In this document: piece by piece, positions 10,100 to 34,784 of the stretch
How the letters are laid out: the number at the start of each line of letters is the position of its first letter
How positions within the stretch are numbered: position 1 is the first letter of the stretch
Assembly: GCA_001029715.1 (NCBI GenBank)
Contig: CP011212.1
Coordinates: forward strand, 67,407 to 131,406
From: a candidate division TM6 bacterium GW2011_GWF2_28_16
Lineage (GTDB): Bacteria; Patescibacteriota; Microgenomatia; UBA1400; PJMF01
Reading direction: 5' to 3'
DNA: 64,000 bases
Position numbers and translations under genes: made by a program
The notes under the pieces: generated by a model
The model's input: only the letters and a program-made list of their open reading frames with translations
The model's database searches: none
Told to the model about the DNA's origin: nothing

Positions 10100-10139
10100 T
10101 GAAAATTATTATATTAGCTATATCGATATGTTTCTAGTG

Positions 10140-10145
10140 TAAAAT
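10140..10145 (+). promoter_or_regulatory. -10-like TAAAAT placed 7 nt before the sigma-factor ATG (possible leaderless transcript)
   Basis: The sequence is gtgTAAAATagagctaATG. There is no Shine-Dalgarno between the element and the start codon. Confidence 0.3.
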
Positions 10146-10152
10146 AGAGCTA

Positions 10153-10713: not shown

Positions 10714-10904
10714 TAGAAAATAATTTTTTAAAGTTACTTAAAGATACTGCCAAAGAACAGAGTTATTTGGGTCAGGAAAAGCTAATTCCAGATCAACTAA
10801 GTGATCTGGCTAATTTTGTTGCCAATCATTTATGGCAAACGGCTTTGTTTTTAGCCTTTTTATCGACGATTTTATTAAATTTTTTAGCCACAATTAGACC
10901 ATGA
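10710..10904 (+). CDS. small single-pass membrane protein, candidate anti-sigma factor
   Basis: An ATGA overlap with the sigma gene stop indicates translational coupling. There is a C-terminal TM (LWQTALFLAFLSTILLNFL). The call rests on position only. Confidence 0.4.
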   Translation: MIENNFLKLLKDTAKEQSYLGQEKLIPDQLSDLANFVANHLWQTALFLAFLSTILLNFLATIRP

Positions 10905-11221
10905 AACATAAACAAAATAAATTTCTAATGATTTTTGACTCAATCATTTATTCCAGCGGACAAATGTTCCTTGGTTTGCTTTTGCATCCTTACCGCAGTA
11001 CTCAGCTTTTAGTTAAGAACAAGCTTTTATTACCATTTATTTTTTATCCTTTTTTAATTGCTTCCTTTTTTTATTTATTTATGCGAATTGATTTGATTTT
11101 GGGTTTTTACCAGAGTAACTTTTTCTTTAAATTTGCTTATCAAACGTTTTTATTCTTTTGTTTTTATTGGCAGATAGCTCTTTTTTATCTATGGTTTCGT
11201 TTTAGCAGGGTTTTTAATTAA
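10901..11221 (+). CDS. hypothetical multi-pass membrane protein
   Basis: Three hydrophobic segments and a 4-nt overlap with the upstream gene. No family recognised. Confidence 0.4.
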   Translation: MKHKQNKFLMIFDSIIYSSGQMFLGLLLHPYRSTQLLVKNKLLLPFIFYPFLIASFFYLFMRIDLILGFYQSNFFFKFAYQTFLFFCFYWQIALFYLWFRFSRVFN

Positions 11222-11222
11222 A

Positions 11223-12305
11223 ATGTTAATTAAATCTTTAGCTCTCCAAAATTTTCGCAATTTTTCTTTGATTAATTTCAGTTTTGAAAAAACTAATCTA
11301 ATTTTTGGCGAGAATGGCATTGGCAAGACCTCAATTATCGAAGCAATTTATTTATTGGCGAGTGCCGATAGCTTTAGAGCTGGTAAAGTCGAAGAAATGA
11401 TTCGTTTGGAAGCAGATTTGGGAAGAGTTCAGGGCTTAATTGATTTAGAGGGTCTCGGTGATGAAGAAAGTGAAGAACTAAAATTAGAAGCAATGCTGAC
11501 AAGAGGGATGGTTCAAGGAAAAAAAACTCAATATCGTTTATTTTCTGTTAACGATATTAGGCGTAGAAAAAAAGATTTTTTAGCTTTTTTTAAAGCAGTG
11601 GTTTTTAGACCAGAAGACCTACGCTTAGTAGAAGGTTCACCATCAAGAAGACGTAGTTTTTTAGATACAGCTTTAATAATGATTTCTGATGAATATCGAT
11701 CCGCTTTATCTAGATACGAGCAAACTCTAAAACGTAGAAATAGATTGTTACAAAAAGTTAATGAAGGCAAAGAGGGCCGAGAGACTCTTAATTTTTGGAA
11801 TACAAATTTAGTTAAAAATGGTGAATTTCTCCAAGCTCAGAGATCGAACCTAATTGATTTTATTAGCGAAGTGGTTTTTCCTTTTGAACTCAACATTGAA
11901 TATATTCCCTCTATAATTTCTGAAAAAAAGTTGCTAGAGCACTTAGATAAAGAGATTTTTCTTGGACACACTTTAATCGGGCCACATAAAGATGATTTTT
12001 TACTTAAGTTTTCACAGGAAGAAAAAGGTATTGATGACCTTAGTCTTTTGGCTTATGGCTCTAGAGGACAGCAACGACTGGGTGTTTTATGGCTTAAAAT
12101 AGCTGAATTACAGTTTTTGACTGATAAAATTGGTTACCAACCAGTGCTTTTGCTTGATGATATTTTGTCAGAGCTTGATATACACAGCAAAGATATGGTA
12201 CTCGATTTATTATCAAATTATCAGACTATTTTGACGACAGCAGACGCTGATGTTCTAGCAGACCTGCGTAGTCGAGTAAAAGATTTGAATCTAATTATCT
12301 TGTAA
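11223..12305 (+). CDS. recF: DNA replication/repair protein RecF
   Basis: Shows LALQNFRNF.., a Walker A (GENGIGKTSIIEAIYLLA), the signature region GSRGQQR and a Walker B (LLLDDILSELD). Confidence 0.92.
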   Translation: MLIKSLALQNFRNFSLINFSFEKTNLIFGENGIGKTSIIEAIYLLASADSFRAGKVEEMIRLEADLGRVQGLIDLEGLGDEESEELKLEAMLTRGMVQGKKTQYRLFSVNDIRRRKKDFLAFFKAVVFRPEDLRLVEGSPSRRRSFLDTALIMISDEYRSALSRYEQTLKRRNRLLQKVNEGKEGRETLNFWNTNLVKNGEFLQAQRSNLIDFISEVVFPFELNIEYIPSIISEKKLLEHLDKEIFLGHTLIGPHKDDFLLKFSQEEKGIDDLSLLAYGSRGQQRLGVLWLKIAELQFLTDKIGYQPVLLLDDILSELDIHSKDMVLDLLSNYQTILTTADADVLADLRSRVKDLNLIIL

Positions 12306-22278: not shown

Positions 22279-23345
22279 AAACAAATCAAGTCGGCATAGT
22301 TGCCTATGGTGCAGCTATTCCAAGACACAAGGTTTCCACTAATATTATTGCTCAAAGTCAGGGTAAAAATGCTGATGTGGCTAAATCTTTGGGTGTTTTT
22401 TCAAAAACTATTCCAAGTTTAGATGAAGATACAGTGACTCTTTCTACAGAAGCAGGCAAAATTGCTTTGGATAGATTTTTATTAAATAAGGGCGCAGTCA
22501 AAAATATCGAAACTCTTTTTATTGGTAGCGAAAGTCATCCTTATGCTGTCAAACCATCTGGCACAGTAGTCAAAGAAGCTCTTGGTTTAAGCAACTATTT
22601 AAGTATGGCTGATCTACAATTCGCTTGCAAAGCTGGTTCTCAGTCTCTGCAAATCGCTGCAGCTTATGTTCAGGCAAAAATGGTTAAAAATGCCATGGCA
22701 ATTGGTGCAGATACTGCCCAAGCTCGTCCTGGAGATGCTCTAGAATATACTGCGGCGGCGGGCGCCGCCGCCTTCATCCTTGGTCATGAAGCGAATAGCG
22801 ATCAATTATTAGCTCGCTTATCAGCCACTAAATCAGTAGCAACTGATACGCCAGATTTTTGGCGCAAACCAAAAGAATCTTATCCGCAACATTTTGGCAG
22901 ATTTACTGGCGAGCCGGCTTATTTCAAGCATGTTTTGATGGCCAGTAGTGCGCTTCTTGCAGAAACAAAGTTGAAGCCAGCAGAAATTGATTTCTGCGTT
23001 TTTCATACGCCAAATGCCAAGTTTCCAGAGCAAGCCGCTAAAATACTTGGATTTACCAAAGAGCAATTAGCTCCATCTCTAGTCGTTAAAGAAATTGGTA
23101 ACACTTATGCCGCTGCTTCACTTTTAGCTCTAACTGCAGTTCTTGATGTCGCTCATGCTAGTGCTAAAATTTTGGTTTGTTCTTATGGTTCTGGTTCGGG
23201 GGCTGATGCTTTTTTGTTTGAAACAACTAAGAATTTGGAAACACAGAGAGTAAAGTATAAAAAAACTCTAGCAGCCCAAATTGCTGCTTTGGAAGCAATT
23301 GATGCTGAAACTTATCAAAAAATGAGGACTGACAATGAACATTAA
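22275..23345 (+). CDS. hydroxymethylglutaryl-CoA synthase (archaeal-type, short form)
   Basis: Shows GIVAYGAAIPRHKV, ..GSESHPYAVKP.. and FACKAGSQSL (catalytic Cys context), then HTPNAKFP. There is a 4-nt overlap with the HMGR gene. Confidence 0.85.
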   Translation: MKTNQVGIVAYGAAIPRHKVSTNIIAQSQGKNADVAKSLGVFSKTIPSLDEDTVTLSTEAGKIALDRFLLNKGAVKNIETLFIGSESHPYAVKPSGTVVKEALGLSNYLSMADLQFACKAGSQSLQIAAAYVQAKMVKNAMAIGADTAQARPGDALEYTAAAGAAAFILGHEANSDQLLARLSATKSVATDTPDFWRKPKESYPQHFGRFTGEPAYFKHVLMASSALLAETKLKPAEIDFCVFHTPNAKFPEQAAKILGFTKEQLAPSLVVKEIGNTYAAASLLALTAVLDVAHASAKILVCSYGSGSGADAFLFETTKNLETQRVKYKKTLAAQIAALEAIDAETYQKMRTDNEH

Positions 23346-24444
23346 AGTAATTGGCAATTACATTGGTAAATTTGCTGAGCTTTGGGAACAGAGCTTAACT
23401 GATTTGATTAAAGAAGGAGTAGAGGGCGTTTTAGCTGATGCGCAAATTGATCCAAAATCAATTGATGCGATTTTTGTAGCCAATAAAGCTAGTGGTAGTT
23501 TTAATAATCAACGTCATTTAGGTGCTTTAGTGAGTGAGCAATTTGCTCATTTTCCTCCAGCAATGCGCATTGAGGGCGCTTGTGCTTCGGGTGGTTTAGC
23601 TATGCTAGCTGCGGAGCAAGCCTTACTCAGCGGTGTTTATAAAACAGTTTTAGTGCTCGGAGTAGAGAAAATGACTGATGTCTCTGGTTCGGAAACAGCA
23701 GCTATTTTAGCGACTGCAGCTAGTCGAGAGAAAGAATATGGCTCTACTTTCCCAGCCCTCTATGCGATTTTGGCCAATTATCACATGAATAAATACGGCA
23801 CTACCAGAGAGCAGTTATCTAGTGTAGTGGTTAAGAACCACTTACACGCCTTCGATAATCCTAAAGCCCAGTTTCATAAGAAATTTACTTTAGAAGATGT
23901 TGCCAATTCTGCCATGGTCGCTTCGCCTTTGCGCTTGTTAGATTGTTCACCAATTAGCGATGGAGTAGCTGCCGTCATTCTTAGCAGTAAACCTTCTTCT
24001 CGCAAAGCTAAAATTCTTGGTTTTGGACATGGCCAAGATACTTTGGCACTTGCCGATCGCCAAGATTTAGGCAGATTGGCTGCGACAGAAAAAGCAGCCA
24101 AACAAGCGTTCTTAATGGCCAAATTGAGTCAGACAGACATTCAAGTGGCAGAAGTTCATGATTGTTTCAGTATTGCTGAAATTTTGGCAGTGGAAGACTT
24201 AGGCTTCTTTGCCAAAGGAAAAGCCGCCGCCGCCATTGCTAAAGGCAAAGCTACTTACGGTGGGCAAATAGTTATCAATCCTTCCGGCGGCCTCAAAGCT
24301 TGTGGGCATCCAGTTGGAGCGACCGGAGTGAAGCAAATTGCTTTTTTGGCTAATTTAATTGAAAAAGGAAAATTTGAACGAGTTCTAGCTCATAATGTTG
24401 GCGGCAGTGGAGCAACCGCGGCTGTAAATATTTTAGGAATATAA
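23335..24444 (+). CDS. acetyl-CoA acetyltransferase (archaeal-type thiolase)
   Basis: Shows RIEGACASGGLA (active-site Cys), ..EVHDCFSIAE.. and NPSGGLKACGHPVGATG. Confidence 0.85.
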   Translation: MNIKVIGNYIGKFAELWEQSLTDLIKEGVEGVLADAQIDPKSIDAIFVANKASGSFNNQRHLGALVSEQFAHFPPAMRIEGACASGGLAMLAAEQALLSGVYKTVLVLGVEKMTDVSGSETAAILATAASREKEYGSTFPALYAILANYHMNKYGTTREQLSSVVVKNHLHAFDNPKAQFHKKFTLEDVANSAMVASPLRLLDCSPISDGVAAVILSSKPSSRKAKILGFGHGQDTLALADRQDLGRLAATEKAAKQAFLMAKLSQTDIQVAEVHDCFSIAEILAVEDLGFFAKGKAAAAIAKGKATYGGQIVINPSGGLKACGHPVGATGVKQIAFLANLIEKGKFERVLAHNVGGSGATAAVNILGI

Positions 24445-24446
24445 AT

Positions 24447-24740
24447 ATGAATATAACGGAGTATTGGCGCTCAAACAAACAATGGTCTAAATATCTTGGC
24501 AAAAAAGCCAAGGTTTTAGCTGTTTCATTGATGGAAGTGGCGGCTTCAGATCAAACTGCGCTTTTGCCTTATTCTTATTTGCTCCTAGATTTAGAGAAAA
24601 GTAAAATTTCTTTGATGGGTGCTGCTCATCAAGAATTTAAAATTGGTGATGAGGTAGAAATTGTTTTGCGCAAAATTAAAAAAGAGGCTCAGGAAGAGAT
24701 AATCGTTTATGGTCTCAAAGCGGAAAAAATTTATGTCTAG
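24447..24740 (+). CDS. DUF35-type OB-fold protein lacking the N-terminal zinc ribbon (thiolase/HMGS partner)
   Basis: 97 aa with no Cys. The pattern G..AKVLAVS..........LPYSYLLLDLE...ISLMG.......IGDEVEIVLRK resembles the DUF35 OB-fold. It occupies the same position as the archaeal thiolase-HMGS-DUF35 triad. Confidence 0.55.
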   Translation: MNITEYWRSNKQWSKYLGKKAKVLAVSLMEVAASDQTALLPYSYLLLDLEKSKISLMGAAHQEFKIGDEVEIVLRKIKKEAQEEIIVYGLKAEKIYV

Positions 24741-25599
24741 TTTTTACAGTGGCAAAGTTATTTTAAGTGGGGAACATAGCGTGGTTTATGGCTATCAGGC
24801 TGTTCTGGCGAGCTTGGATTTAGGAATTTCTTGTATTGCTAAAGAAGGCTCTTTGAGTCATGAGCAAAAAAGTGATCTATATCTACAGCACATTCTAGAG
24901 ATGTTTTCTAAGCTTGCACAAATTAAAGAAATTCAGTTAGCACTTAAAATTAAATCGAATTTGCCTCAAAAATCAGGTCTTGGTTCTTCAGCGGCTTTTG
25001 CAGCAGCAGTTTTTTCAGAGTTGGCAGATTTTTATAATTATTCACTCAACCAAGATCGCCTCTACAAATTGGTTTTAGAAGCAGAAAATTTTATTCATGG
25101 TCGTTCCAGCGGAGCTGATCCAGCGATTGTTGTTTATGGTGGCTTAATTGCTTTTAGTCAAGGTAAAGTAGAGCATTTGCCAGATTTAGCCTTGGCAAAG
25201 AAAAGTTTTTTCTTAATTGATTCTGGAATTGCTGATGAATCCACTGGTGAAATGGTGGCTAAAGTTGCTGCTAATAAGTCTAGCCGGCCATTTATAGATG
25301 AAATTGGCGGAATTAGTCAAAAAATGATAGTTGATTTAAAGAATAGTTTCTTCAATCCTCAACTTTTGAATGAAAATCAAGCACTTTTAGAAGAAATTGG
25401 CATAATTGCTGATTCAGTGAAAGACACTATTCGCCAATTACAAAAGTTAGGTGCTTTTTGTAAAATTACTGGAGCAGGCGGACTGAAGAGTGGCTCTGGT
25501 TTTATTTTAGCTTTTCACCAAAATGAAGCAAACTTTGAGCAAAATTTAAAAAATATGGGTTTGAGTTTTTTCAAAACCCAACTAGGAAATACGAAATGA
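24733..25599 (+). CDS. GHMP kinase, mevalonate-kinase-like (paralog 1)
   Basis: Shows GKVILSGEHSVVYG (motif I) and QKSGLGSSAAFAAAV (motif II), then KITGAGG. ATG 24733 (MSSFYSGK..) is preferred over the longer 24709 start. Confidence 0.8.
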   Translation: MSSFYSGKVILSGEHSVVYGYQAVLASLDLGISCIAKEGSLSHEQKSDLYLQHILEMFSKLAQIKEIQLALKIKSNLPQKSGLGSSAAFAAAVFSELADFYNYSLNQDRLYKLVLEAENFIHGRSSGADPAIVVYGGLIAFSQGKVEHLPDLALAKKSFFLIDSGIADESTGEMVAKVAANKSSRPFIDEIGGISQKMIVDLKNSFFNPQLLNENQALLEEIGIIADSVKDTIRQLQKLGAFCKITGAGGLKSGSGFILAFHQNEANFEQNLKNMGLSFFKTQLGNTK

Positions 25600-26585
25600 A
25601 AAAAGTGAAGACTTCTGCCCCAGGAAAATTGATGCTTTTTGGTGAACATAGTGTGGTTTTTGGTCATCCTTGTATTGTGACTGCCGTTGATCGTCGTTTA
25701 TCAATTACTGTTGAGGAAAATGGCGAAGAAGTTTTTATTTTAGATGCGCCAGATTTGGGTTTACGAGCTTATTCTAAGCGAATTTGTGATCTTGGTAATA
25801 AAGATTTGCCAAAAGAAGTTAGCTTTATCGAAACTTGCTATAAGCTATTTTTGGAGAAATACCCACAACAAAAAACTATTCATGTTTATAGCAAGAATGA
25901 ATTCAAATCTTCTTATGGTCTTGGTTCAAGTAGTGCTAGCACAGTGGCTTTTGCTAAAGCTTTAAGTGAGTTTTATGAAGTGCCAATGAATAATGATCAG
26001 TTGTTCGATTTGGCTTATCAGACTGTTTTAGAAGTGCAGGGTGTGGCTTCTGGTTTTGACATTGCAGCTGCAATTTGGGGTGGAACGATTTATTACATCA
26101 CTCCTCATGGCAAACTTAGTAAACATAAAACTGTCGAACCAATCAAAATCAAAAACTTGCCTTTGTTAGTTGCCTATACTGGTATTAAAGCTGATACTGC
26201 CACCTTAATTCGAATGGTGCAAAATTTGCACAGTGAAAACAAAGGAACAGTTAATCACATTTTTACCGATATTACTCTTTTGGTAGAACAGGCTAAAAAG
26301 ACTCTTCAACAGCAAGACTGGCCACATCTTGGCTTATTAATGGATGAGAACCAAGCTTTACTACGTAAATTGCAAATTAGTAGCATTGAGCTAGAGAATC
26401 TCATCGCTGCTGGCAAAAGTGCCGGAGCAATGGGAGCCAAGCTCTCTGGAGCTGGAGGCGGTGATTGTATGTTAGCTTTAGTTGATGAAGCTGAGAAAAA
26501 AGCCGTTGCTCAAGAAATTACCAAGGCTGGTGGTAAAATTATTGAGGTGGAGATGAATGCGGAGGGCGTACGTTTGGAAAACTAA
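25596..26585 (+). CDS. GHMP kinase, mevalonate/phosphomevalonate kinase (paralog 2)
   Basis: Shows APGKLMLFGEHSVVFG, SSYGLGSSSASTVAFA and KLSGAGGGDCMLAL. There is a 4-nt overlap with paralog 1. Confidence 0.8.
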   Translation: MKKVKTSAPGKLMLFGEHSVVFGHPCIVTAVDRRLSITVEENGEEVFILDAPDLGLRAYSKRICDLGNKDLPKEVSFIETCYKLFLEKYPQQKTIHVYSKNEFKSSYGLGSSSASTVAFAKALSEFYEVPMNNDQLFDLAYQTVLEVQGVASGFDIAAAIWGGTIYYITPHGKLSKHKTVEPIKIKNLPLLVAYTGIKADTATLIRMVQNLHSENKGTVNHIFTDITLLVEQAKKTLQQQDWPHLGLLMDENQALLRKLQISSIELENLIAAGKSAGAMGAKLSGAGGGDCMLALVDEAEKKAVAQEITKAGGKIIEVEMNAEGVRLEN

Positions 26586-26694
26586 GTTTCGAGCCAGAGA
26601 TCGCTTGAATAAATACATTTTTTCACGCGCTCAAATGTCTCTAAACTTAGTTTTCCAAAACGTACTTTATTTAATTAAGCAAATTGAAAAAAAT

Positions 26695-27693
26695 ATGAAA
26701 AAAACAACGGTTCAAGCAGGTAGTGATATCGCTTTTGTTAAGTATTGGGGCAAAAAGGATAAAATCCTACGTTTACCAAGCAATGGTAGTATTTCCATGA
26801 TTTTAGATTCTTTGCAGAGCAAAACTACTGTCGAGTTTTTGCCAAATTTAGCTAAGGATGAGATCATAATAGGTGGCGAAGTTGAAGAGGGAGAGGCTTC
26901 TCGTGCCATTAAACATTTGGACAGAATTAGAACTTTAGCCAAAGAAAAAGGATTGATAGATAAAGATATTTTTGCTAAAGTCGTTTCGGAGAATAATTTT
27001 CCCAAGAGCACTGGTCTTTCTAGCTCTGGTTCTGGTTTTGCTGCTTTGACCATGGCTGCCACTAAGGCTATTGGTTTAGATCTTTCAGAAAAAGAATTGT
27101 CTATTTTAGCCAGGCAAGGATCTGGCTCTGCCTGTCGCTGTGTTTGTGGTGGTTTTGTTGAGTGGTTAGATGGTGAAACTTCTGAAGAATCTTATGCACA
27201 AAGCTTTGCTAAGTCAGAAGATTTTGATATTAGAGATTTAGTGGCGATTGTTTCAGAAGATAAAAAGAATTTAAGCTCAAGTGATGGACATGATTTAGCA
27301 GAAAGCAGTTTGTTTTTTAAGGCTCGTCAAGAAAAAATTGATACCAAGTTAGCAGCTGTCAAAAGAGCAATTTTACAAAAAGACTTTGAAACCCTAGGTG
27401 AAATAGTAGAAGCCGAGGCTTTAGAGTTTCACTCAATTTTATTAACCAGTCAGCCAACTATCTTGTTGTTTTATCCGGGAACGATTGAGGTGATGCAGGC
27501 TGTTCGTCAATTGCGTAAGACTGGTGTGCCAGTTTATTTCACTATTAATACCGGCTTCAATGTCCACATTTTGACTTTACCTCAATATGAGAAACAGGTA
27601 GCTGCTGTTTTGCAAAATTTACCAAGTGTGCAGAAAATTATTATCTCAGGAGCAGGTAATCAGCCAGAATATTTAGAAAAACATTTGTTTTAA
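26695..27693 (+). CDS. mvaD: diphosphomevalonate decarboxylase
   Basis: Shows SDIAFVKYWGKKD, PKSTGLSSSGSGFAAL and GSGSACR. ATG 26695 (MKKTTVQAG..) is preferred; the 46-codon upstream extension in the ORF track has no homology-like content. Confidence 0.85.
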   Translation: MKKTTVQAGSDIAFVKYWGKKDKILRLPSNGSISMILDSLQSKTTVEFLPNLAKDEIIIGGEVEEGEASRAIKHLDRIRTLAKEKGLIDKDIFAKVVSENNFPKSTGLSSSGSGFAALTMAATKAIGLDLSEKELSILARQGSGSACRCVCGGFVEWLDGETSEESYAQSFAKSEDFDIRDLVAIVSEDKKNLSSSDGHDLAESSLFFKARQEKIDTKLAAVKRAILQKDFETLGEIVEAEALEFHSILLTSQPTILLFYPGTIEVMQAVRQLRKTGVPVYFTINTGFNVHILTLPQYEKQVAAVLQNLPSVQKIIISGAGNQPEYLEKHLF

Positions 27694-28303: not shown

Positions 28304-29287
28304 TTATAGAAGTAGTAGCAAGAGTGCGCCAACGCCTAGGGCTCCAAGGCCAGCTTTAATGTAGTTCATCCAATCAGCTGGGCCACTTTCAGTAGGAACG
28401 TTGATTGGGCGCACGATGGTGGTTTCACCATTTGCTAATTTGCATTGACTATCTGTAGGATTGACGTCGAGGCGACATTGACCGCTGTAACAAATATGAC
28501 TAATGTTGCTACAGTCAGCATTGGCATTACAAGTTTCGTTGCAGCCAACAGTGGTAATAACGGTGGTAACAGATGGAGTTGGAGTGCTGGTAGCGGTCAC
28601 AGTAGTAGTTGGAGTTACGGTTGTAGTTACAGTAGTGGTTGGAGTAACAGTTGTAGTAACGGTTGGAGTAACAGTTACGGTTGCTTCACAACAAGTTGTG
28701 CTACTAGGATCGGCGACACATTCATCGAGATAATCTTCATCTGCACAGTATTTAACAATGTTTCCATCGCCATCAGTATCTGAAGTAGAAATACAAACAT
28801 AACCATCTTCGCAGTCATCGCTGTTGGTACAGTCTTTTTCACCACAAGAAAGCAAGTTTTCTTCTGGAGCGGTGCAACAAGAGTCAGTGTTTGGATCATC
28901 TATACAGGCTGTTTTATAATCTTCATCTGCACAATATTTATTGCCATTGTCGGCCTCAATACAAATTAAATTACTGCTACAGTCATCGTCACTTTCGCAA
29001 CCACTCAAACCACAGGTAATTTTATCTGGTTCTGTAACTGTAAATTCAAGAGTACAAGTTTGAGTTTTTTCAATATAAGCAGCTGGCTGAGATTGAGGGG
29101 CAGTTGGGGCGACTGGAGTAGTGTCTTGTTTTTGCGTAATTAAGAAAACACTAACTGCGCCACCAACAAAAATTAGTAGACCCAGCAACATAGCGATCAC
29201 TTTAAAATCGCCTTTTTTCTTCAGAGCAGTTTGTCCTTGCTTTGATTTTACGTAGGTCGCTGGTGTTTCAATTTGTTCTATGTTCAT
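28304..29287 (-). CDS. Cys-rich surface protein with N-terminal signal anchor, T/V/P repeat stalk and C-terminal hydrophobic anchor
   Basis: The TM is FKVIAMLLGLLIFVGGAVSVFLI. Two roughly 50-aa modules (CG..(G/D)C..(D/S)DDC.....C......YCADEDY...C..DP.....CC) are followed by (TVTPTTTV)n, a third degenerate module, and the terminal GLGALGVGALLLLLL. Confidence 0.7.
   Translation of the reverse strand: MNIEQIETPATYVKSKQGQTALKKKGDFKVIAMLLGLLIFVGGAVSVFLITQKQDTTPVAPTAPQSQPAAYIEKTQTCTLEFTVTEPDKITCGLSGCESDDDCSSNLICIEADNGNKYCADEDYKTACIDDPNTDSCCTAPEENLLSCGEKDCTNSDDCEDGYVCISTSDTDGDGNIVKYCADEDYLDECVADPSSTTCCEATVTVTPTVTTTVTPTTTVTTTVTPTTTVTATSTPTPSVTTVITTVGCNETCNANADCSNISHICYSGQCRLDVNPTDSQCKLANGETTIVRPINVPTESGPADWMNYIKAGLGALGVGALLLLLL
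28590..28684. repeat. imperfect ~24-nt tandem repeat inside the CDS, encoding (TVTPTTTV)n
   Basis: Repeating units such as ggttggagtaacagttgtagtaac are visible on the plus strand. The wider T/V/P-coding tract spans about 28549-28686. Confidence 0.7.
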
Positions 29288-29291
29288 TATT

Positions 29292-30683
29292 TTAATTCAC
29301 ATTATCTATCATTGTGCTTGGTGAATTATCCACCATTTCCCAAACTTGGCATTCCGTTCCCCAGCAAATACGACCCTGGACAACGTAATCTCCAAAGCTT
29401 GAAATGGTGTAGGAATCAGATACATTTTTAGCAATTGCGCCACTAGTGTCAGTTAGATCTATCCAAGAGCTCATGCCTGGAGCCCAGATTCTAAATTCAT
29501 AATTAAAGTCAACTCCTTGGTTGCCGACAGCAGTGCAACGGAAGCGCACCTCATCTCCGTCCTTGAGACTATCATCATCGTTTGCTTCCATAGTATTGTT
29601 ATTAGCATCTAGCATATCTATGCTGGCACAAACTGGCATAGCCTGGCTTTCACAACAATTGGCAGTGCTTGGATCAGCTGCGCAAAACAATTGATTTTCT
29701 CCTTTGGCACAAATACCAGTCGATTGAGAGTCGACTGTTACTGTTTGACAAGTAAGACCATTTTGACAGTCAGAATTTTGAGTACAACCAATCACTCCGC
29801 AGGCTAAAAGTTCTGGAGGTGTAGTAGGAGTTGGAGTAGGTGTTCTATTTGGAGGATTAGTTGGAGTAGGGGTTGGTGTGGCGCAATCTGAACAATCAGC
29901 TCCAGCATCACCGCATAAAGCATCACAACTTGAGGCACTGCCTATCACCCACCAGCCAGCGCTACATTGGCAACGCATTAAGCCAGATTCTTCACAGTTT
30001 TCGATTACTGAAGTATTTGGATTGTCGCACCAATCTCCGCCCATGGATTGTTCTGTGCACGGATCTTGATCGGTAACGTAACCGCACATGGTATCGCCAT
30101 TGGCGATTATTCTACAGGTAGTACTAACACATGGTCCACCAGCTACGAGTCTATGCAGATTTGGACCGCAGGCCGCCACAGTTGTGGTTGGAGTAACGGT
30201 CGAACCACCCGTGGGTGTACAGGCACCATCAATTACACGATAGCCAGTAATACATCTTCCACTAGTACCATTACAATATGGATCTCCTTCCATACACATC
30301 TCACTGGCTTGTTGGCGGTTGTCTTGATTTTGTCTGCTAAGTATATAACTAGAAAAAACCCCAACTACCAAGAAAAAAACTATAAGTAAGCCAGCCAATT
30401 TATTATTTGATTTCTTTTTCACTTGAAAAGATGGTTTTTGATCAGTTGAAAGTGGATTTTGAATAGAAACAGTTTCAGCACCTGACTTAACTGCCTCTTT
30501 GAGAGGTTCATTATCTGTAATTGTATTACCGCGATATTCTGGTATTTCTGGTTCTTTAGCAAGATCATTCCAAGGGGAATCAATTTTTTCTGGTTCTTTA
30601 ACAAAGTTATCGGAAGAATCCTCTGCCTTGTCTATCTGGCTTTTTTTATATTTAGCTGGTATAAAATCTCTAGGATTATTCAT
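29292..30683 (-). CDS. Cys-rich surface protein (signal anchor, PT-linker, shared Cys module, C-terminal beta-rich domain)
   Basis: About 95 aa of cytoplasmic N-terminus precede the TM LAGLLIVFFLVVGVFSSYIL. Then come a Cys-rich region, a PTPTPTPTNPPNRTPTPTPTTPP linker, and the module CGVIGCTQNSDCQNGLTC...FCAADPSTANCC shared with the neighbouring gene. Confidence 0.7.
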   Translation of the reverse strand: MNNPRDFIPAKYKKSQIDKAEDSSDNFVKEPEKIDSPWNDLAKEPEIPEYRGNTITDNEPLKEAVKSGAETVSIQNPLSTDQKPSFQVKKKSNNKLAGLLIVFFLVVGVFSSYILSRQNQDNRQQASEMCMEGDPYCNGTSGRCITGYRVIDGACTPTGGSTVTPTTTVAACGPNLHRLVAGGPCVSTTCRIIANGDTMCGYVTDQDPCTEQSMGGDWCDNPNTSVIENCEESGLMRCQCSAGWWVIGSASSCDALCGDAGADCSDCATPTPTPTNPPNRTPTPTPTTPPELLACGVIGCTQNSDCQNGLTCQTVTVDSQSTGICAKGENQLFCAADPSTANCCESQAMPVCASIDMLDANNNTMEANDDDSLKDGDEVRFRCTAVGNQGVDFNYEFRIWAPGMSSWIDLTDTSGAIAKNVSDSYTISSFGDYVVQGRICWGTECQVWEMVDNSPSTMIDNVN

Positions 30684-30787: not shown

Positions 30788-31588
30788 ATGAAATTTTTAA
30801 AATTAAATACAAAACAAAGATATTGGCTAGATTTTATTCTTGTGATGACGCAAAAGGAGATAAAGGCAAGGTATAAGAGAACTTTTTTAGGTCTTTTGTG
30901 GGTAATTTTTAATCCATTCTTGCAGATGCTAATAATTGGTTTGATTTTTCAATTTTTTGTTCCTATGCAAATTGAGAATTATTTTCTTTATCTTTTTGCT
31001 GGTCTTTTACCTTGGAATTTCTTTTCAATGGCGCTTTTGCGCGCGACACCTCTTTTAGTGCAGGAAAGATCTTTGATTCAAAAAGCTGCTTTTCCTAGAG
31101 AATTAATGGTTGTGGCAGTGGTCATGGCAAATTTATTTCATACTTTAGTGGCTAGTTCAGTATTTTTGCTATTTTTAGCTTTTCTAAAGACGAGTTTTTT
31201 TGCTGGTGTCCTATTTTTTATATCTAGCTTTTTCTTAATCTTTTTAATACTTATCTTTTTATTATTTTTTACTTTGGCGACTTGTTTAGTTATTTCTGCA
31301 TTATATGTAAAGATAAGAGATTTAATTTTCATTATCCAACTTTCAATTCAATTGCTATTTTATGCTGTGCCAGTTATCTATAGTCTAGAGATGTTACCGG
31401 AATTTTTTAGAAATCTACTTTATCTAAATCCATTGGTTAGCTATATTGAGGTTTTTAGAGCGGCTGCTTTAAATAGTGTTTTCAATTATAAAATGGCAAT
31501 TTATGCCGGTCTTTTTTCCATTTTTTTTCTATTTTTTGCTCTGCAATTTTTTCGAAAAGAAAGCAAAAATTTTGATGATTGGTTTTAA
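30788..31588 (+). CDS. ABC-2 type transporter permease (Wzm/TagG-like)
   Basis: 266 aa with six TM helices. The N-terminal cytoplasmic helix EIKARYKRTFLGLLWVIFNP is typical of ABC-2 polysaccharide/teichoic-acid exporters. Confidence 0.82.
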   Translation: MKFLKLNTKQRYWLDFILVMTQKEIKARYKRTFLGLLWVIFNPFLQMLIIGLIFQFFVPMQIENYFLYLFAGLLPWNFFSMALLRATPLLVQERSLIQKAAFPRELMVVAVVMANLFHTLVASSVFLLFLAFLKTSFFAGVLFFISSFFLIFLILIFLLFFTLATCLVISALYVKIRDLIFIIQLSIQLLFYAVPVIYSLEMLPEFFRNLLYLNPLVSYIEVFRAAALNSVFNYKMAIYAGLFSIFFLFFALQFFRKESKNFDDWF

Positions 31589-31596: not shown

Positions 31597-32649
31597 ATGA
31601 AAAACAGTAAAAATAAAAAAATAGCTATAAATATAGAAAACGCTAGTAAACGCTATTTCTTGCGATCTGCAAAAGCTAAGAAAAAAGAAACTTTTTTTGC
31701 CTTAAAAGATATAAATATAAAAATATTTAAGGGAGAAAAAGTAGCTATTCTTGGTGACAATGGGGCTGGCAAGACTACTTTGCTCAAAGTAATGACTGGA
31801 ATAGCAGAACCAACTTGTGGGAAAGTGAATAGTATTGGTAAGCTTGTTTCCTTAATTGATATCACGGCTGGTTTTCATCCTGAGTTTTCAGGTCGTGAAA
31901 ATATTTATTTCAATGGCATTCTTTTAGGAATGAATCTTTCTTCAATTAAAAAATTAGAGCAAGAAATAATTAATTTTTCAGGTATAGAAAAATTTATAGA
32001 TCAAGCTCTTTATACCTATTCTTCAGGTATGGTTTTGCGGCTTGGTTTTTCTATTGCTATTCACAGCGATCCAGATATTTTAATTTTGGATGAGGAGGTG
32101 GTGGTGGGAGATCAGGATTTTCAGAAAAAGGCCTATGATGAAATTGAGAAGATTTTTGCTGAAGGTAAAACCATTGTTGTTTGTAGTCATGTTTTACCTT
32201 TACTGAGTAGACTTTGTGAGCGCTTCATCTGGCTAGATAAAGGCAAAGTAAAAATGGATGGAGGTAAAGAGGTTGTTATTGAATATAAAAAGAATCGAAG
32301 TAAATTGGATATAGAAAAAATTGGCAAGATTAAAAATGAAAAAAAATTTTTTCAATTTCTGCAATCTTTGCCAATCGGAGAGAGGTTTATTGTAGAAGCA
32401 GTCAGTGGCAGTATGGAGCCACTTATCTTAAAGGGCGATGAGGTAAGAGTTGAAAGGTGTTCACTTAAAAATATAAGAGTTGGCAACATAATTGCTTATT
32501 GGAGCGATGAATTTAAAAATATCATTGTTCATAGAATTTATAAGAAAAGCTCTAAGGGGATTTTCTTGACTAGAGGAGATAGTAACTATATTGTAGATGA
32601 GATGCCAGTCACAGAAGATATTTTTTTAGGTAAAGTTATTAATTTTTAA
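31597..32649 (+). CDS. ABC transporter ATP-binding protein (Wzt/TagH-like) fused to a C-terminal S24/S26-superfamily (SipW/Sec11-type) peptidase domain
   Basis: The NBD shows Walker A GDNGAGKTTL, TagH-like AGFHPEFSGRENIY, signature YSSGM and Walker B ILILDE. The C-terminal roughly 95 aa show SGSMEPLILKGDEV, IIVHRIY and TRGDSNYIVDE. No hydrophobic segment lies between the domains. ATG 31597 is preferred over 31579. Confidence 0.8.
   Translation: MKNSKNKKIAINIENASKRYFLRSAKAKKKETFFALKDINIKIFKGEKVAILGDNGAGKTTLLKVMTGIAEPTCGKVNSIGKLVSLIDITAGFHPEFSGRENIYFNGILLGMNLSSIKKLEQEIINFSGIEKFIDQALYTYSSGMVLRLGFSIAIHSDPDILILDEEVVVGDQDFQKKAYDEIEKIFAEGKTIVVCSHVLPLLSRLCERFIWLDKGKVKMDGGKEVVIEYKKNRSKLDIEKIGKIKNEKKFFQFLQSLPIGERFIVEAVSGSMEPLILKGDEVRVERCSLKNIRVGNIIAYWSDEFKNIIVHRIYKKSSKGIFLTRGDSNYIVDEMPVTEDIFLGKVINF
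32350..32646 (+). other. peptidase-like domain of the ABC ATPase (candidate Ser at nt 32410-32412 in SGSMEP, candidate His at 32530-32532 in VHRI)
   Basis: The box order SGSMEP - GD - VHR - GDSN..D matches the conserved boxes B, C, D and E of ER/archaeal-type signal peptidases (S26B). Confidence 0.6.
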
Positions 32650-32934
32650 ATGAGGATAAATATGAAAATATTATATATTCGAGACAATGATCTTTATTTT
32701 AAGGAGGAAGACGGCAAAATATTGGTTTTAAAAAAGAACAAAAAAGAAATTGTGGAATTAAATGAGGTTGGCTCTTTGATTTGGAAAGCTTTGAAGACGA
32801 AGAAGTCTATTGATGCTTTGGTGAAAAAAATAAATTCAGCTTTTGAGGGGGCAGATTCTAAGGAGGTAAAAAAAGATGTTGAGGAGTTTATTCTCAAGTG
32901 TTTAAAAGATTCAATAATAGAAAAAATAAATTAG
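32650..32934 (+). CDS. PqqD-family protein (RiPP recognition element-like)
   Basis: 94 aa with the pattern ..DGKILVLKKNKKEIVELNEVGSLIWKAL..KKSIDALVKKINSAFE....EVKKDVEEFILKCLKDSII. This is the typical PqqD/RRE layout of a beta-strand region followed by a winged helix. Its start abuts the upstream stop. Confidence 0.75.
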   Translation: MRINMKILYIRDNDLYFKEEDGKILVLKKNKKEIVELNEVGSLIWKALKTKKSIDALVKKINSAFEGADSKEVKKDVEEFILKCLKDSIIEKIN

Positions 32935-32938
32935 AGTT

Positions 32939-33922
32939 ATGAAAAAAATTAGCAGACAAGAGTTTGATTATTTAATTAAAAAAAGAAAGCTTGAAGATCC
33001 AAAGAAAATTAAAGCTTTTGAAAAAATACTAAAAGATGAGCGCGGTTATGTTTTCAAAATGCCTAAAAGAGGTTCGAATGTTATTTTAATGGCTTCTGGT
33101 GGACTTGATTCAATGGTTGTTTGGGGAATTTTAATGAAAGAATATGGCTTGAATGTTTATCCGATTACTTTTGACAGAGGTGAAAAAAAAAGAAACAGGG
33201 AATTTGCTGCTTTTAAATATTTTGATAAATTTTATCAGAAAAAATTTCCTAAAAATTATAGAAAATTTTTAGATTTAGACGTAGGACAAGATCAGATTTC
33301 AATAAAAATTGAAGACGGTGTCAAAGATCTACGAGAAGAAACATTATTAAATAATTTTAGAGATGACTTAATGTTTTTTAACCCCTCTTTAGGTGTTTTT
33401 ACTATCTTGCCACTTTTTGCACGTAGTTATGCCATGTATCTAAATGCAATTAAAGGTCTAAAAATTAATACTATTTTTTGTGCCGTCACAGCCAATGATG
33501 GGGAATTAATTGCTCATCAAACCTTAACTTCATTGAGGTCTATTATGTGCAACATGTGTGTTTCAATCAAAGATTATTCTTGGCAGTTTTTGTCAATTTG
33601 TTTAGAGCCAGAAATTAATTCTTTTATAAAGAAATCAGATCTTGTTAAGTGGGGAGAAGATAATAGTTTACCACTAGAAAAATCTTGGAGTTGTTACCAT
33701 GCGAAAAAGTATCAATGTGGTGGAGATAACTGTATTGCTTGTGAAGCGAGAAGAAAAGCATATTTAGAGGCAAAAATAGAAGATAGAACTATTTATAAAA
33801 GCCTTGCAGATCAGGAGATCCTAATTAAAAAAGCGAAAAAAACTTTAAGAAAGTATCTTTCTAGAACAAAAAAGAACTTAATAAACACAGTTAAACGTTT
33901 TTTTGAAGATACGATAAGATAG
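32939..33922 (+). CDS. QueC-like PP-loop ATP pyrophosphatase (divergent, with ~45-aa N-terminal extension)
   Basis: The PP-loop is VILMASGGLDSMVVW, followed by ITFDRGEK (QueC: FDYGQR). The C-terminal four-Cys cluster SCYHAKKYQCGGDNCIACEARR sits at the position of the QueC zinc site. Confidence 0.7.
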   Translation: MKKISRQEFDYLIKKRKLEDPKKIKAFEKILKDERGYVFKMPKRGSNVILMASGGLDSMVVWGILMKEYGLNVYPITFDRGEKKRNREFAAFKYFDKFYQKKFPKNYRKFLDLDVGQDQISIKIEDGVKDLREETLLNNFRDDLMFFNPSLGVFTILPLFARSYAMYLNAIKGLKINTIFCAVTANDGELIAHQTLTSLRSIMCNMCVSIKDYSWQFLSICLEPEINSFIKKSDLVKWGEDNSLPLEKSWSCYHAKKYQCGGDNCIACEARRKAYLEAKIEDRTIYKSLADQEILIKKAKKTLRKYLSRTKKNLINTVKRFFEDTIR

Positions 33923-34042: not shown

Positions 34043-34071
34043 ATGTTAGATAATTTTTAAGTTGTTGTCAA
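34043..34071 (-). promoter_or_regulatory. sigma-70-type promoter TTGACA-17 nt-TAACAT upstream of the 22-codon ORF
   Basis: On the minus strand, -35 TTGACA is at 34071-34066 and contains the TGA stop of the methyltransferase gene. The spacer is 17 nt and -10 TAACAT is at 34048-34043. The ATG is at 34033. Confidence 0.45.
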
Positions 34072-34784
34072 CGATTAGATTGCTTTTGAATTATGCCCAG
34101 TCCAGAGCCTAAATAATTTACTTCAATCTTATTTTTGTTTGTTTTTTCTTCCCAAAGTTTCCAGACTCCGTATTTTCCTTCTGGCAAAGTTTCTTTTATA
34201 GAAATATCGTGCAGAAGCATAAGACCTCCTTCATGGAGCATCGGCCAGAAGAGTTTAAAATCTGTTTTTATTCCTTCATAGGAATGGTCTCCGTCTATAT
34301 AGATATATTCATAGCTCATGTTTTTATATTTTTTGGCAAATTTTTGCGTAGTTGTTACAAATAGTTGGATATTATTTTCTAAGCCAAAATTTTTGAAATG
34401 ATCTTTGCCTTCTTGAGTTTTCCAAAAACCTTTTCCGGTCCATGAGCTTTTACCTTCTTTTTTTATTTCATCGCCAAATCCCGCATCAACAAAGTCGACT
34501 TTGCCAAAACCATTGTCATGACAAGCTTGAGCTAGAACAGCTGGTATATATCCATATCGGGATCCAATGCAAAGAATTTTCTTTGCTTTTATTTGTCTGA
34601 GTAGGCCATAGTGAATCCAACCATATCCTAGGTCAGCATTTTTGATATTGGATTCGTGTCCAAATTCATCTGCTTCAAAAAAATTCATTAATTCGGTAAT
34701 TCTTAAATCATTGGAGAGCTTTTTACTTTTTTCTTGCTGATGGAATATTAAATATTTTAAGATTTTTGTTTTGATTCCAAACAT
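34068..34784 (-). CDS. class I SAM-dependent methyltransferase (CmcI / Methyltransf_24-like)
   Basis: Shows ILCIGSRYGYIP (a degenerate G-rich motif I) and YIYIDGDHSYEGIKTDFKLFWPMLHEGGLMLLHDI. Confidence 0.7.
   Translation of the reverse strand: MFGIKTKILKYLIFHQQEKSKKLSNDLRITELMNFFEADEFGHESNIKNADLGYGWIHYGLLRQIKAKKILCIGSRYGYIPAVLAQACHDNGFGKVDFVDAGFGDEIKKEGKSSWTGKGFWKTQEGKDHFKNFGLENNIQLFVTTTQKFAKKYKNMSYEYIYIDGDHSYEGIKTDFKLFWPMLHEGGLMLLHDISIKETLPEGKYGVWKLWEEKTNKNKIEVNYLGSGLGIIQKQSNR

Follow-up and report, generated by a model that had tools for sequence, protein, structure and literature searches.

The fusion gene and its neighborhood

In the 64-kb stretch of DNA analyzed here (the window), the open reading frame at 31597-32649 on the forward strand, with an ATG at 31597 and a stop codon at 32647-32649, encodes a fusion protein of 350 aa. 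We confirmed that it consists of a Wzt/TagH-class ABC ATPase and a ~105 aa S26B (SipW/Sec11-type) peptidase domain without a transmembrane (TM) segment between them. The nucleotide-binding domain (NBD; 31597..32301, residues 1-235) matches Pfam ABC_tran over residues 36-166 (E 7e-20), and its top NCBIfam models are Wzt/RfbE and TagH (E 1e-50), which bears out the Wzt/TagH assignment of the first ~235 residues in the first-pass annotation; the score lies below the equivalog cut-offs of these models (172 bits vs 400 bits). The Walker A (GDNGAGKTT), signature (YSSGM), Walker B (ILILDE) and H-loop (His198) motifs are intact and invariant in the family alignment of 16 fusions. A Foldseek search returned the NBDs of TarH and Wzt as the best matches, and both sequence and fold agree with A. 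aeolicus WzmWzt (7k2t) and S. aureus TarGH (9cfl) at 36-40% identity. The gene directly upstream (30788..31588, +) encodes the membrane partner of the ATPase, a Wzm-like (Wzm/TagG-type) permease of the ABC-2 class (Pfam ABC2_membrane, E 1.5e-15; NCBIfam galactan Wzm, E 3e-18), and a Wzm-like permease gene occupies the same position in related loci wherever the contig permits. Wzt/TagH systems likewise have the permease upstream and an extra C-terminal domain on a helical linker, but in our case a protease domain replaces the carbohydrate-binding module.

The NBD is followed at 32302..32370 by a hydrophilic linker (residues 236-247) and helix α1 (residues 248-257, KKFFQFLQSL). The AF2 model has helices at residues 224-241 and 248-257 with low pLDDT in between, and a separate model of the peptidase domain has helix H2-12; the full-length model has a pTM of 0.65, and how its NBD and S26 domain are oriented toward each other is uncertain. 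The maximal 19-residue Kyte-Doolittle mean of the fusion protein is 1.35 and is located within the ATPase core, compared with 3.17 for the adjoining permease and 2.34 for an ordinary Clostridium SipW-like peptidase, in agreement with the earlier observation that no hydrophobic segment lies between the two domains.

As ~30 full-length homologs share 41-100% identity with the fusion protein and a natural split form exists, we ruled out that two genes had been joined by an assembly error or a frameshift, an outcome that the first-pass annotation had raised. In the split form, found in locus L027, Wzm, a 244 aa NBD and a 104 aa S26 protein are encoded by three neighboring genes. An exhaustive profile search added, within its top 150 matches, at least 15 more representatives of NBD-S26 fusions (clustered at 50% identity), which are 314-360 aa long and carry the S26 match at the C-terminus; the named ones all belong to Patescibacteria.

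Immediately downstream, the gene at 32650..32934 (+) encodes a discrete RiPP recognition element (RRE) of the PqqD family (94 aa; Pfam PqqD, E 1.2e-11, above the cut-off), which also matches the lasso-type PqqD chaperone model (E 4.6e-7). It is followed at 32939..33922 (+) by the gene for a 327 aa PP-loop ATPase of the QueC family (Pfam QueC, E 2.7e-14), a candidate peptide-modifying ligase whose P-loop reads SGGLDS and whose C-terminal part bears a Cys4 motif. The search for close relatives of this protein gave just 29 clusters, the named ones all from Patescibacteria, and no related sequence was found in the PDB. A role as a sugar amidotransferase of the WbpG/WbuX type was considered and rejected; TIGR03573 was matched with no better than E 0.014, and the Cys motif is not the one described for the corresponding cluster.

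On the opposite strand, a small open reading frame at 34033-33965 (-) encodes a candidate precursor peptide of 22 aa, MQKYKKPQLRIIDLKAILVVAE, with the leader motif Y4-x-x-P7-x-L9. It is the sole small open reading frame in the window that matches the YxxPx[L/V/I/A] motif; NCBIfam holds no model for small YxxP peptides. The candidate gene lies apart from the PqqD gene and has no obvious Shine-Dalgarno sequence. The gene at 34068..34784 (-) encodes a SAM-dependent methyltransferase (Methyltransf_24; Pfam, E 5e-18), a conserved accessory gene present in most related loci. The locus is flanked by glycosyltransferase, GT2 and Wzy_C genes, and by Bac_transf in relatives.

The C-terminal peptidase domain and its likeness to LppS

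The peptidase core (32371..32649, residues 259-350 and the stop codon) contains, in the order of S26B peptidases, the boxes SGSMEP (residues 270-275), KGD (279-281), IIVHRI (309-314) and GDSNYIVD (327-334). The catalytic residues are Ser272 (AGT at 32410-32412), His312 (CAT at 32530-32532), Asp328 (32578-32580) and Asp334 (32596-32598), and the general base is thus His, as first read from the sequence. NCBIfam TIGR02228, the model of archaeal-type signal peptidase I, matches residues 262-348 with 69.4 bits (cut-off 51.85), beginning at profile position 30, just past the part of the model with the N-terminal anchor, while Pfam Peptidase_S24 scores 21.4 bits, slightly under its 23.3-bit cut-off. 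In its catalytic boxes and its Ser-His chemistry, the domain therefore agrees with MEROPS S26B (SipW/Sec11/archaeal). In contrast to members of this family, which have an N-terminal anchor and an active site outside the membrane, it has neither an N- nor a C-terminal membrane anchor and follows a cytoplasmic NBD, and its likely substrate is a short RRE-bound peptide rather than a Sec signal peptide.

The predicted fold of the domain (pLDDT 93.6) is the β-barrel of clan SF and superimposes on clan-SF proteases, with a sharp fall-off beyond the clan; a comparison with SipW, Sec11 and LexA types had been proposed in the first-pass annotation. In an alignment of 28 TM-less relatives with a mean column identity of 27%, no variation occurs at Ser272, His312-Arg313 or Gly327-Asp328, and the conservation of Asp334 is 90% or higher; among the 16 aligned fusions, Ser, His and the GD box are likewise invariant and Asp334 nearly so. 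The domain profile matches SEC11A with E 1.4e-11, and the Ser, His and Asp boxes are aligned with Ser56, His96 and Asp122 of SEC11A.

Two alternatives to a protease acting on another molecule were weighed against these data. A non-catalytic binding module would resemble SipA of S. pyogenes pilus assembly or the carbohydrate-binding domain of Wzt. Wzt proteins normally have such a module at this C-terminal position, and 7k2t and 8dku are among the structure-search matches; nevertheless, the near-complete conservation of the catalytic residues at such low overall identity, together with a structural alignment giving 34% identity to SEC11 over 90 residues but 18% to SipA, makes this explanation very improbable. 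We give the slimmest chance to a self-cleaving module of the LexA/UmuD kind that releases itself or regulates the ATPase. Structure comparison does show a fold common to the peptidase domain, LexA, UmuD′ and lambda cI, and the linker to the NBD is flexible, but the general base is His as in S26B and not Lys as in S24, neither an Ala-Gly nor a Cys-Gly site is conserved in the Lys-rich linker across the family alignment, and standalone and split forms of the domain exist.

The closest functional precedent is LppS, an experimentally characterized SipW-like, RRE-dependent RiPP leader peptidase from the LPP clusters of Bacillota (Nat Commun, May 2026; PMC13381572), LPP being the RiPP class of linear polyphosphorylated peptides. 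BLASTP aligned the peptidase domain with LppS at 28% identity (E 6e-10) from LppS residue 4 on, including α1, and hhalign gave a probability of 98.9% (E 1.9e-17). LppS itself has no N-terminal TM segment. Ser272, His312 and Asp334 correspond to S29, H68 and D93 of LppS, and the S29A, H68A and D93A variants of LppS are inactive (PMC13381572), which again argues against a mere binding module. The two proteins thus align end to end as TM-less S26B cores behind an N-terminal helix, with equivalent Ser, His and Asp residues. Cleavage by LppS requires the RRE LppB, and α1 of LppS touches the RRE-leader sheet (PMC13381572); the helix at residues 248-257 of the fusion protein is equivalent to this RRE-docking helix.

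The likeness extends to the neighborhood, in that a discrete PqqD-type RRE gene adjoins the peptidase, a precursor bears the [Y/W]xxPx[L/V/I/A/F]-type motif, which is the one recognized by lasso and LPP RREs (PMC13381572), and the genes are set in a polysaccharide locus. However, the systems differ in several respects. Here the peptidase forms the C-terminal part of a Wzt/TagH-type ABC-2 ATPase, whereas LPP clusters have a separate MsbA-like transporter; the partners here are the QueC-family ATPase and Methyltransf_24, plus a PLP decarboxylase or a spermine-synthase-like enzyme in some loci, whereas those in LPP clusters are an HprK kinase and an NTP transferase. No gene for an HprK-like kinase, an NTP transferase or an MsbA-like transporter was found in the window. 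Precursors are 21-32 aa long here (rarely longer) but 35-200 aa in LPP clusters, and none of the 22 peptides compared here contains VLxHQxIxFET, the extended motif of LPP leaders. The hosts here are Patescibacteria, a group represented in the LPP data set by just two ordinary signal peptidases (PMC13381572). A cytoplasmic SipW-like RiPP leader peptidase is already precedented by LppS, and the novelty lies in the enzymes that accompany the domain and in its joining to a Wzt-type ATPase.

Gene context across related loci

We compared 20 non-redundant loci carrying a TM-less S26 domain, of which 14 encode NBD fusions, 5 standalone domains and 1 a fusion to NTP_transf_5. A genome scan with one peptidase alignment gave nine loci, three of which are ordinary TM signal peptidases and were used as controls, and a metagenome scan with another peptidase alignment gave two. 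The S26 domain is accompanied by an adjoining PqqD-type RRE (in varying orientation) in 19/20 loci and by a gene for a 21-32 aa peptide (rarely longer) with the YxxPx[L/V/I/A] motif, beside the PqqD or QueC-like gene, also in 19/20, yielding 22 motif-bearing peptides. A QueC-family ATPase gene is present in 18/20 loci, mostly with a Methyltransf_24 gene, although gene order and orientation are reshuffled from locus to locus. The suggested survey of fusions and their neighbors yielded at least 15 clusters of fusions, with PqqD and the peptide as recurring partners in the loci compared. Ser and His proved invariant and aligned with the active-site residues of both SEC11A and LppS, as the proposed S24/S26 alignment was meant to establish.

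Natural controls point in the same direction. PqqD, peptide and QueC partners are all absent from L012-L014, the three loci of ordinary signal peptidases with a TM anchor. In L018, which encodes a plain 259 aa NBD, the S26 domain, PqqD and the peptide are all missing together. The QueC-like homolog P0269 in L015 bears a fused PqqD domain, which indicates a peptide substrate for the QueC-like enzyme. L015 is also the only locus with NTP_transf_5, fused there to an S24/S26-like domain, and an S26::Spermine_synth fusion exists as well.

This distribution bears on the suggestion that the peptidase cuts the cytoplasmic N-termini of the two adjoining Cys-rich membrane proteins (28304-29287 and 29292-30683, both -) or of other envelope proteins. 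The two genes lie immediately upstream of the fusion cluster and are syntenic in the nearest relatives. However, the synteny reaches unrelated mevalonate genes and thus reflects close relatedness rather than function. The Cys-rich genes are kept in L018, which has no S26 domain, and are missing from L003, L017, L019 and L023-L027, all of which bear one, so they do not co-vary with the S26 domain. The Cys-rich proteins are accordingly poor substrate candidates, and we regard this explanation as highly unlikely. No Cys-rich homolog was seen in L028 and L029, both of which lie outside the Cys-rich homolog search.

The precursor and RRE families also recall lasso and PQQ clusters. Lasso clusters comprise a B1 RRE, a B2 protease, an ATP-dependent PP-loop cyclase C and an ABC transporter D. 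The present locus shares the RRE family and the leader motif with lasso and PQQ systems, together with an ATP-pyrophosphatase-type enzyme, a protease and an ABC transporter, and the 22 aa precursor is PqqA-like in size and N-terminal motif. In the window, however, no B2 transglutaminase-like protease, asparagine-synthetase-like cyclase or radical-SAM PqqE was found, and Pfam and NCBIfam identify only the QueC-like ATPase, the methyltransferase and glycosyltransferases among the neighboring genes. A lasso cluster is excluded because the B2 protease and the cyclase are absent, and the core would be too short for a threaded lasso; a PQQ cluster is excluded because PqqE/B/C are absent and the peptides do not have the conserved Glu...Tyr pair.

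Possible role of the fusion in peptide processing and export

Taken together, the last 105 residues of the ABC ATPase probably form an LppS-like S26B peptidase that is catalytically competent, resides in the cytoplasm, is guided by an RRE and is mounted on an ABC-2 exporter. By analogy with the published LppS experiments, cleavage by the fusion protein is putatively RRE-dependent. The adjacent PqqD protein may bind the YxxPxL motif of the 22 aa peptide as an extra β-strand and dock onto helix α1, which would put the hydrophobic C-terminal part of the peptide into the Ser272/His312/Asp334 site. Given the spacing in LppA (Tyr at -16), the cut would fall 1-7 residues from the C-terminus, that is, at approximately ILV/VAE to VVA/E in the window peptide. 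In 20/22 of the YxxP peptides, 16-22 residues follow the Tyr, and the LppA spacing places Ala at P1 in 8/22. A core of 1-7 residues is unusually short for a RiPP, and removal of a leader and removal of a follower are both conceivable. Before or after cleavage, the QueC-family ATPase and the Methyltransf_24 enzyme could modify the peptide via an adenylated carboxylate. We infer the cut position, the QueC-like chemistry and the export of a peptide product from these comparisons.

With the S26B peptidase standing where Wzt has its carbohydrate-binding module, two peptidase domains would be suspended beneath the NBD dimer of the Wzm/Wzt-type pump, and the product would therefore be released at the transporter entrance. 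This arrangement recalls PCATs, bacteriocin exporters in which a C39 cysteine protease at the N-terminus of a type IV half-transporter acts on a double-glycine leader. A leader-type peptidase on the cytoplasmic side is covalently part of an ABC exporter in both, and processing would presumably be coupled to export here too. In the fusion protein, the protease has a serine S26B fold instead of the papain-like C39 fold and follows the NBD C-terminally, in an ABC-2 (type V) pump whose NBD is a subunit of its own; recognition would involve a separate RRE and the YxxPxL motif. The Pfam scan gave no C39 or ABC_membrane match, and the peptides have no GG/GA motif at the end of the leader. The resemblance to PCATs is thus an analogy only; the gene context, in which PqqD and the peptide each occur in 19/20 loci, nonetheless favors the initial idea that a protease for peptides is carried by the exporter.

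The nature of the cargo is less certain. The pump might instead export a lipid-linked glycan or a teichoic-acid-like polymer, with the peptide system separate or loosely connected; in variants of this explanation, the fusion just tethers the peptidase near the membrane, or a peptide-derived moiety decorates or caps the glycan and is recognized or trimmed as an export checkpoint replacing the Wzt module. The NBD is nearest to Wzt/TagH and the permease to Wzm, genes for glycosyltransferases, GT2, Wzy_C and, in relatives, Bac_transf flank the cluster, and LPP clusters of Bacilli likewise sit inside capsule loci (PMC13381572). Furthermore, L018 retains the pump and the QueC-like, MT24 and PLP decarboxylase genes without the peptide system, and the cargo may therefore not be peptide-derived. 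Known cargo of Wzm/Wzt and TagGH pumps consists of lipid-linked polymers, not peptides. On the other hand, the S26 domain strictly co-varies with PqqD and the peptide and with no glycosyltransferase, and ABC-2 pumps elsewhere, such as McbEF and AlbCD, export peptides. In L028, an additional Wzm/NBD pair of the plain type lies 3.6 kb from the S26-bearing pair, which suggests a division of labor in which the S26-bearing pump is the specialized one. We therefore consider glycan export unlikely, but by a much narrower measure than the alternatives discussed above.

Returning to an RRE-guided peptidase on an exporter, the locus may, tentatively, represent an undescribed, Patescibacteria-specific class of peptide products, although we would not yet favor this view. 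A PqqA-sized precursor of 21-32 aa would be held by PqqD and modified by the QueC ligase, and the S26B peptidase on the Wzt-type pump would then cut it just 1-7 residues before its C-terminal end. The ligase chemistry could be amidation, formation of a nitrile or a lactam, or conjugation at the N-terminus of the kind known from Cap9, and methyltransferase, PLP-decarboxylase or aminopropyltransferase enzymes might assist. If so, a cut so close to the C-terminus implies that the exported molecule would be a tiny modified peptide, a metabolite derived from an amino acid, or a peptide that caps a glycan of the cell surface.

We found no description of the fusion or of the QueC/PqqD cluster in the literature on PqqD/QueC/signal peptidase RiPPs and Patescibacteria RiPPs, nor in term searches of a QueC-family survey (PMC13329287), a structure-based RRE survey (PMC12710340) and the RRE-Finder paper. 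Judging from its constant gene neighbors, the fusion protein probably trims the 22 aa peptide at the export pump. It represents a novel, fused version of a peptide-maturation protease whose first description dates from 2026.

RRE-guided cytoplasmic SipW-like RiPP proteases thus probably extend from Bacillota to the candidate phyla radiation, here in a tiny uncultured bacterium, and an S26B protease on an ABC-2 (Wzt-type) ATPase would provide a second, independent answer to the coupling of processing and export besides the C39 PCATs. Hosts thought to be poor in secondary metabolism carry a compact, recurring set of genes for a peptide, PqqD, S26, a QueC-like ATPase and a methyltransferase. An unassigned branch of the QueC family thereby gains a testable handle, and the context of a YxxP motif beside PqqD/QueC offers a rule for locating tiny precursor genes overlooked by gene callers. 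If the locus does specify a new product class, it would include the first ABC-2 exporter bearing a serine protease and a new job for QueC-family enzymes.

Domain structure and conservation of the fusion protein

The fusion gene on the plus strand extends from an ATG at 31597 to a stop codon at 32647-32649 and encodes a 350 aa product. The Pfam ABC_tran model covers residues 36-166 (E 7e-20), and the best models for the N-terminal 235 aa are Wzt/RfbE and TagH (E 1e-50), both under their equivalog cut-offs. The NCBIfam model for archaeal-type signal peptidase I, TIGR02228, matches residues 262-348 with 69.4 bits (cut-off 51.85 bits), starting at profile position 30, past the anchor region of the model. 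All four signal-peptidase boxes named in the first-pass annotation were found: SGSMEP (270-275), KGD (279-281), IIVHRI (309-314) and GDSNYIVD (327-334). The maximum 19-residue Kyte-Doolittle mean (KD19) is 1.35 and lies within the ATPase, compared with 3.17 for the adjoining permease and 2.34 for a normal SipW-like enzyme; thus, no membrane anchor is present between or after the two domains. Both the observation of a Wzt/TagH-type nucleotide-binding domain (NBD) joined to a transmembrane (TM)-less S26B peptidase domain and its interpretation by analogy with peptidase-containing ABC transporters hold.

A word-indexed search recovered ~30 full-length homologues with 41-100% identity. The C-domain profile was also used in an exhaustive HMM search of representatives of 50% clusters, which yielded among its top 150 hits at least 15 proteins of 314-360 aa with a C-terminal match. 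Many other hits were standalone proteins of 100-170 aa whose match begins within the first 5-15 residues, and these are TM-less versions of the fused domain. Locus L027 carries the split form, in which Wzm, a 244 aa NBD and a 104 aa S26 protein are encoded by three consecutive genes (142-1971); the genes for a QueC-like enzyme, the peptide MKKYQKPIIVVKKIVSFQERR and PqqD converge on them from the opposite strand. The homologues and the split form indicate that the fusion is a natural recurrent architecture and not the product of a mis-assembly or frameshift, for which the first-pass annotation had allowed. The QueC-like neighbor of the fusion gene is 100% identical to UT13_C0001G0077 of Candidatus Pacebacteria bacterium GW2011_GWF2_38_9, and most other named hosts belong to the Patescibacteria (Pacebacteria, Microgenomatus, Saccharibacteria and 'Patescibacteria group'). 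Two MAG contigs with family members bear the title 'uncultured Pseudomonadales'.

Ser272, Met273, Pro275, His312, Arg313, Gly327 and Asp328 are invariant in 16 fusions, and Asp334 is nearly so. In 28 fused and standalone TM-less relatives, S-M-P, H-R and G-D show no variation and conservation of the downstream Asp reaches at least 90%, at a mean column identity of only 27%. This conservation of the catalytic residues contradicts a role of the domain as a non-catalytic binding module. The domain profile matches human SEC11A/C (7p2p, 7p2q; E 1.4e-11), and the alignment brings the Ser, His and GDNN..D boxes into register. In the AF2 prediction for the domain (pLDDT 93.6), an N-terminal helix precedes a beta-barrel. 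A self-cleaving module of the LexA type was also considered, but the domain lacks the Lys general base and has no conserved cleavage site.

Gene neighborhood and candidate precursor peptides

The fusion gene (31597-32649) is the second gene of an operon that begins with a Wzm-like permease (30788-31588), continues with a PqqD-family protein (32650-32934; Pfam E 1.2e-11, lasso-type PqqD chaperone E 4.6e-7) and ends with a QueC-family PP-loop ATPase (32939-33922). A Methyltransf_24 (MT24) gene and a GT1 gene converge on this operon from the opposite strand, and a candidate peptide ORF of 22 codons, MQKYKKPQLRIIDLKAILVVAE (34033-33965, minus), lies downstream of the methyltransferase. This is the only ORF found by the peptide motif search of the 64-kb window.

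We surveyed NBD-S26 fusions and their neighbors, as the first-pass annotation had proposed, in 20 non-redundant loci bearing a TM-less S26 domain, which is fused to an NBD in 14, standalone in five and fused to NTP_transf_5 in one. A PqqD gene adjoins the S26 domain in 19/20 loci, a small ORF starting M-K-K...Y-x-x-P is likewise found in 19/20, and a QueC-like gene in 18/20. MT24 is present in most loci. The profile scan placed a PLP-dependent decarboxylase in about half of the 20, and a few contain a spermine-synthase-like gene. Gene order and orientation vary: the peptide and PqqD genes are convergent to the fusion gene in most loci, the QueC-like, peptide and PqqD genes form a single tight operon in three (L024, L027 and L029), and the peptide gene is relocated behind the methyltransferase in the window and in L006. 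The genes are therefore linked by function and not by inherited synteny. None of the partner genes was found at three loci of ordinary TM-anchored signal peptidases. In L018, a control relative with the same flanking genes, the NBD is a plain 259 aa protein, and the S26 domain, PqqD and the peptide are all absent together. L018 (1-9700) has kept the genes for a QueC-like enzyme, a PLP decarboxylase and MT24, placed between those of the plain NBD and Wzm, and DAHP synthase, DHQ synthase and DHQase II are encoded nearby; this is a hint that the QueC-like/MT24 module can also act in a small-molecule pathway that involves no peptide.

Two large single-pass membrane proteins without a Pfam family (28304-29287 and 29292-30683, minus) carry Cys-rich modules with Thr/Pro-rich linkers (TPTTTVT repeats) between them. 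Synteny of their genes extends to related Microgenomates/Pacebacteria loci, but they do not co-vary with the S26 domain, and their earlier nomination as its substrates was rejected on this test. The compact mevalonate-pathway operon that precedes the cluster (23335-27693, plus) encodes a thiolase-like protein, a small OB-fold protein, two GHMP kinases and diphosphomevalonate decarboxylase, and several relatives (L001, L004) have it at this upstream position too. Locus L003 (3322-6065) has AbiEii-type toxin-antitoxin and AAA/DUF4143 genes inserted between Wzm and the fusion gene, and L022 (5764-7838) has such genes directly behind the standalone S26 gene, which suggests that mobile insertions are concentrated in this region.

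The 22 peptides from the 19 loci share the start (M)KK...Y-x-[K]-P-x-[L/V/I/A]-K-K..., followed by an alternating Lys/hydrophobic stretch, a hydrophobic run and a short tail with Glu or Lys at its end. The stretch after the Tyr is 16-22 residues long in 20 of them. In L023, three tandem paralogous genes for 24-25 aa peptides, MKKYAKPTDKRLKIKVVMSLLAVK and two variants (1018-1245, minus), sit between the PqqD and QueC-like genes. Locus L019 encodes a 70 aa precursor (9952-10164, minus) with the same KKYxxPL leader and a Cys/Gly/Asp-rich repeat core (CDGWGDCGD...GWGDCGGGDC...), indicating that the peptidase/RRE (RiPP recognition element) pair handles cores of more than one type. Next to this precursor lie two radical-SAM genes, one of which has a SPASM domain, and the cluster also contains UbiA, a QueC-like gene, MT24, a PLP decarboxylase and a standalone 112 aa S26 protein.

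Relation to LppS and a proposed pathway

Cytoplasmic SipW-like RiPP leader peptidases that act with an RRE became known in May 2026 with LppS of Bacillota, whose authors describe the type as previously unreported in RiPP pathways (PMC13381572). Cleavage by LppS requires the discrete RRE LppB and is abolished by S29A, H68A and D93A, and the N-terminal alpha1 helix of LppS touches the RRE-leader beta-sheet; the LPP leader, YxxPxVLxHQxIxFET, is cut after Thr, placing Tyr at -16, and LPP clusters are located in capsule loci (PMC13381572). LppS (WP_029196374.1, from the supplementary data of that study) likewise lacks an N-terminal TM segment and aligns with the window domain over residues 4-105, helix included (28% identity, E 6e-10; hhalign profile-to-sequence probability 98.9%), such that Ser272, His312 and Asp334 correspond to S29, H68 and D93. 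If the spacing of the precursor LppA applies, the putative scissile bond lies 1-7 residues from the C-terminus, as in ILV|VAE of the window peptide and, in the L019 precursor, IIV|TCDGW. P1 would then be Ala in 8/22 peptides and mostly small or aliphatic in the others, which fits a signal-peptidase-type specificity but proves nothing.

The LPP data set of 199 proteins, mostly from Bacillota, includes just two CPR entries, one a 143 aa TM-anchored signal peptidase and the other recorded without an RRE, and makes no mention of QueC or ABC-transporter fusions (PMC13381572). In the literature searched, we found no description of an S26 fusion to a Wzt-type ABC-2 ATPase, of the QueC-family/methyltransferase partner set, of such short precursors or of the restriction to Patescibacteria, to which the named hosts mostly belong.

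By analogy, PqqD would bind the YxxPxL strand of the peptide and dock on helix 248-257 of the fusion protein, and the S26 domain would then cut the presented peptide. We infer the steps after RRE-dependent cleavage. The QueC-family enzyme might activate a carboxylate with ATP, either at the peptide C-terminus or on a Glu side chain; alternatively, it might activate a small acid to be joined to the new N-terminus, as QueC-like Cap9 does with a protein N-terminus in type IV CBASS (bioRxiv 10.1101/2025.04.06.647259). The methyltransferase would tailor the product. A flexible linker tethers the peptidase below the NBD dimer, so the product would be set free at the entrance to the Wzm channel.

Fusions to other partners and a second pump

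P0269, a 421 aa QueC-family enzyme in L015 (687-1952), has a C-terminal PqqD/RRE domain (residues 357-411; 27.1 bits, Pfam cut-off 23.4 bits), a fusion that links the QueC-like enzyme to an RRE-bound peptide. As far as we found in the literature searched, a QueC-family enzyme with its own RRE has not been described. Its gene neighbors two YxxP peptide genes in tandem (510-638 and 421-501, minus) and another discrete PqqD gene. In the same locus a TM-less S24/S26-like domain and an NTP_transf_5 nucleotidyltransferase form one protein (3716-4981), and in the 402 aa protein P0329 S26 is fused to a spermine-synthase-like methyltransferase-fold domain. The peptidase module has thus been welded promiscuously to pathway partners beyond the ABC ATPase.

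The main rival reading, which we regard as unlikely, takes a lipid-linked glycan as the cargo of the pump, with the peptide system either separate or providing a cap; it draws on the affinity of the NBD to Wzt/TagH, the glycan genes surrounding the cluster and the plain NBD and Wzm of L018. Locus L028 bears on this point, as it contains two ABC-2 pumps (5230-7014 and 10606-12131) 3.6 kb apart, one with an S26-bearing ATPase and the other with a plain 243 aa ATPase, flanking PqqD, QueC-like, MT24 and PLP-decarboxylase genes. The second, plain pump argues that the S26-bearing pump is dedicated to the peptide pathway. Some standalone TM-less S26 proteins, among them P0125, P0291 and LppS, have a moderately hydrophobic C-terminal tail (KD19 1.3-1.8), and the fused S26 domain is without one. 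The link to the NBD may take the place of a membrane-proximal tether.
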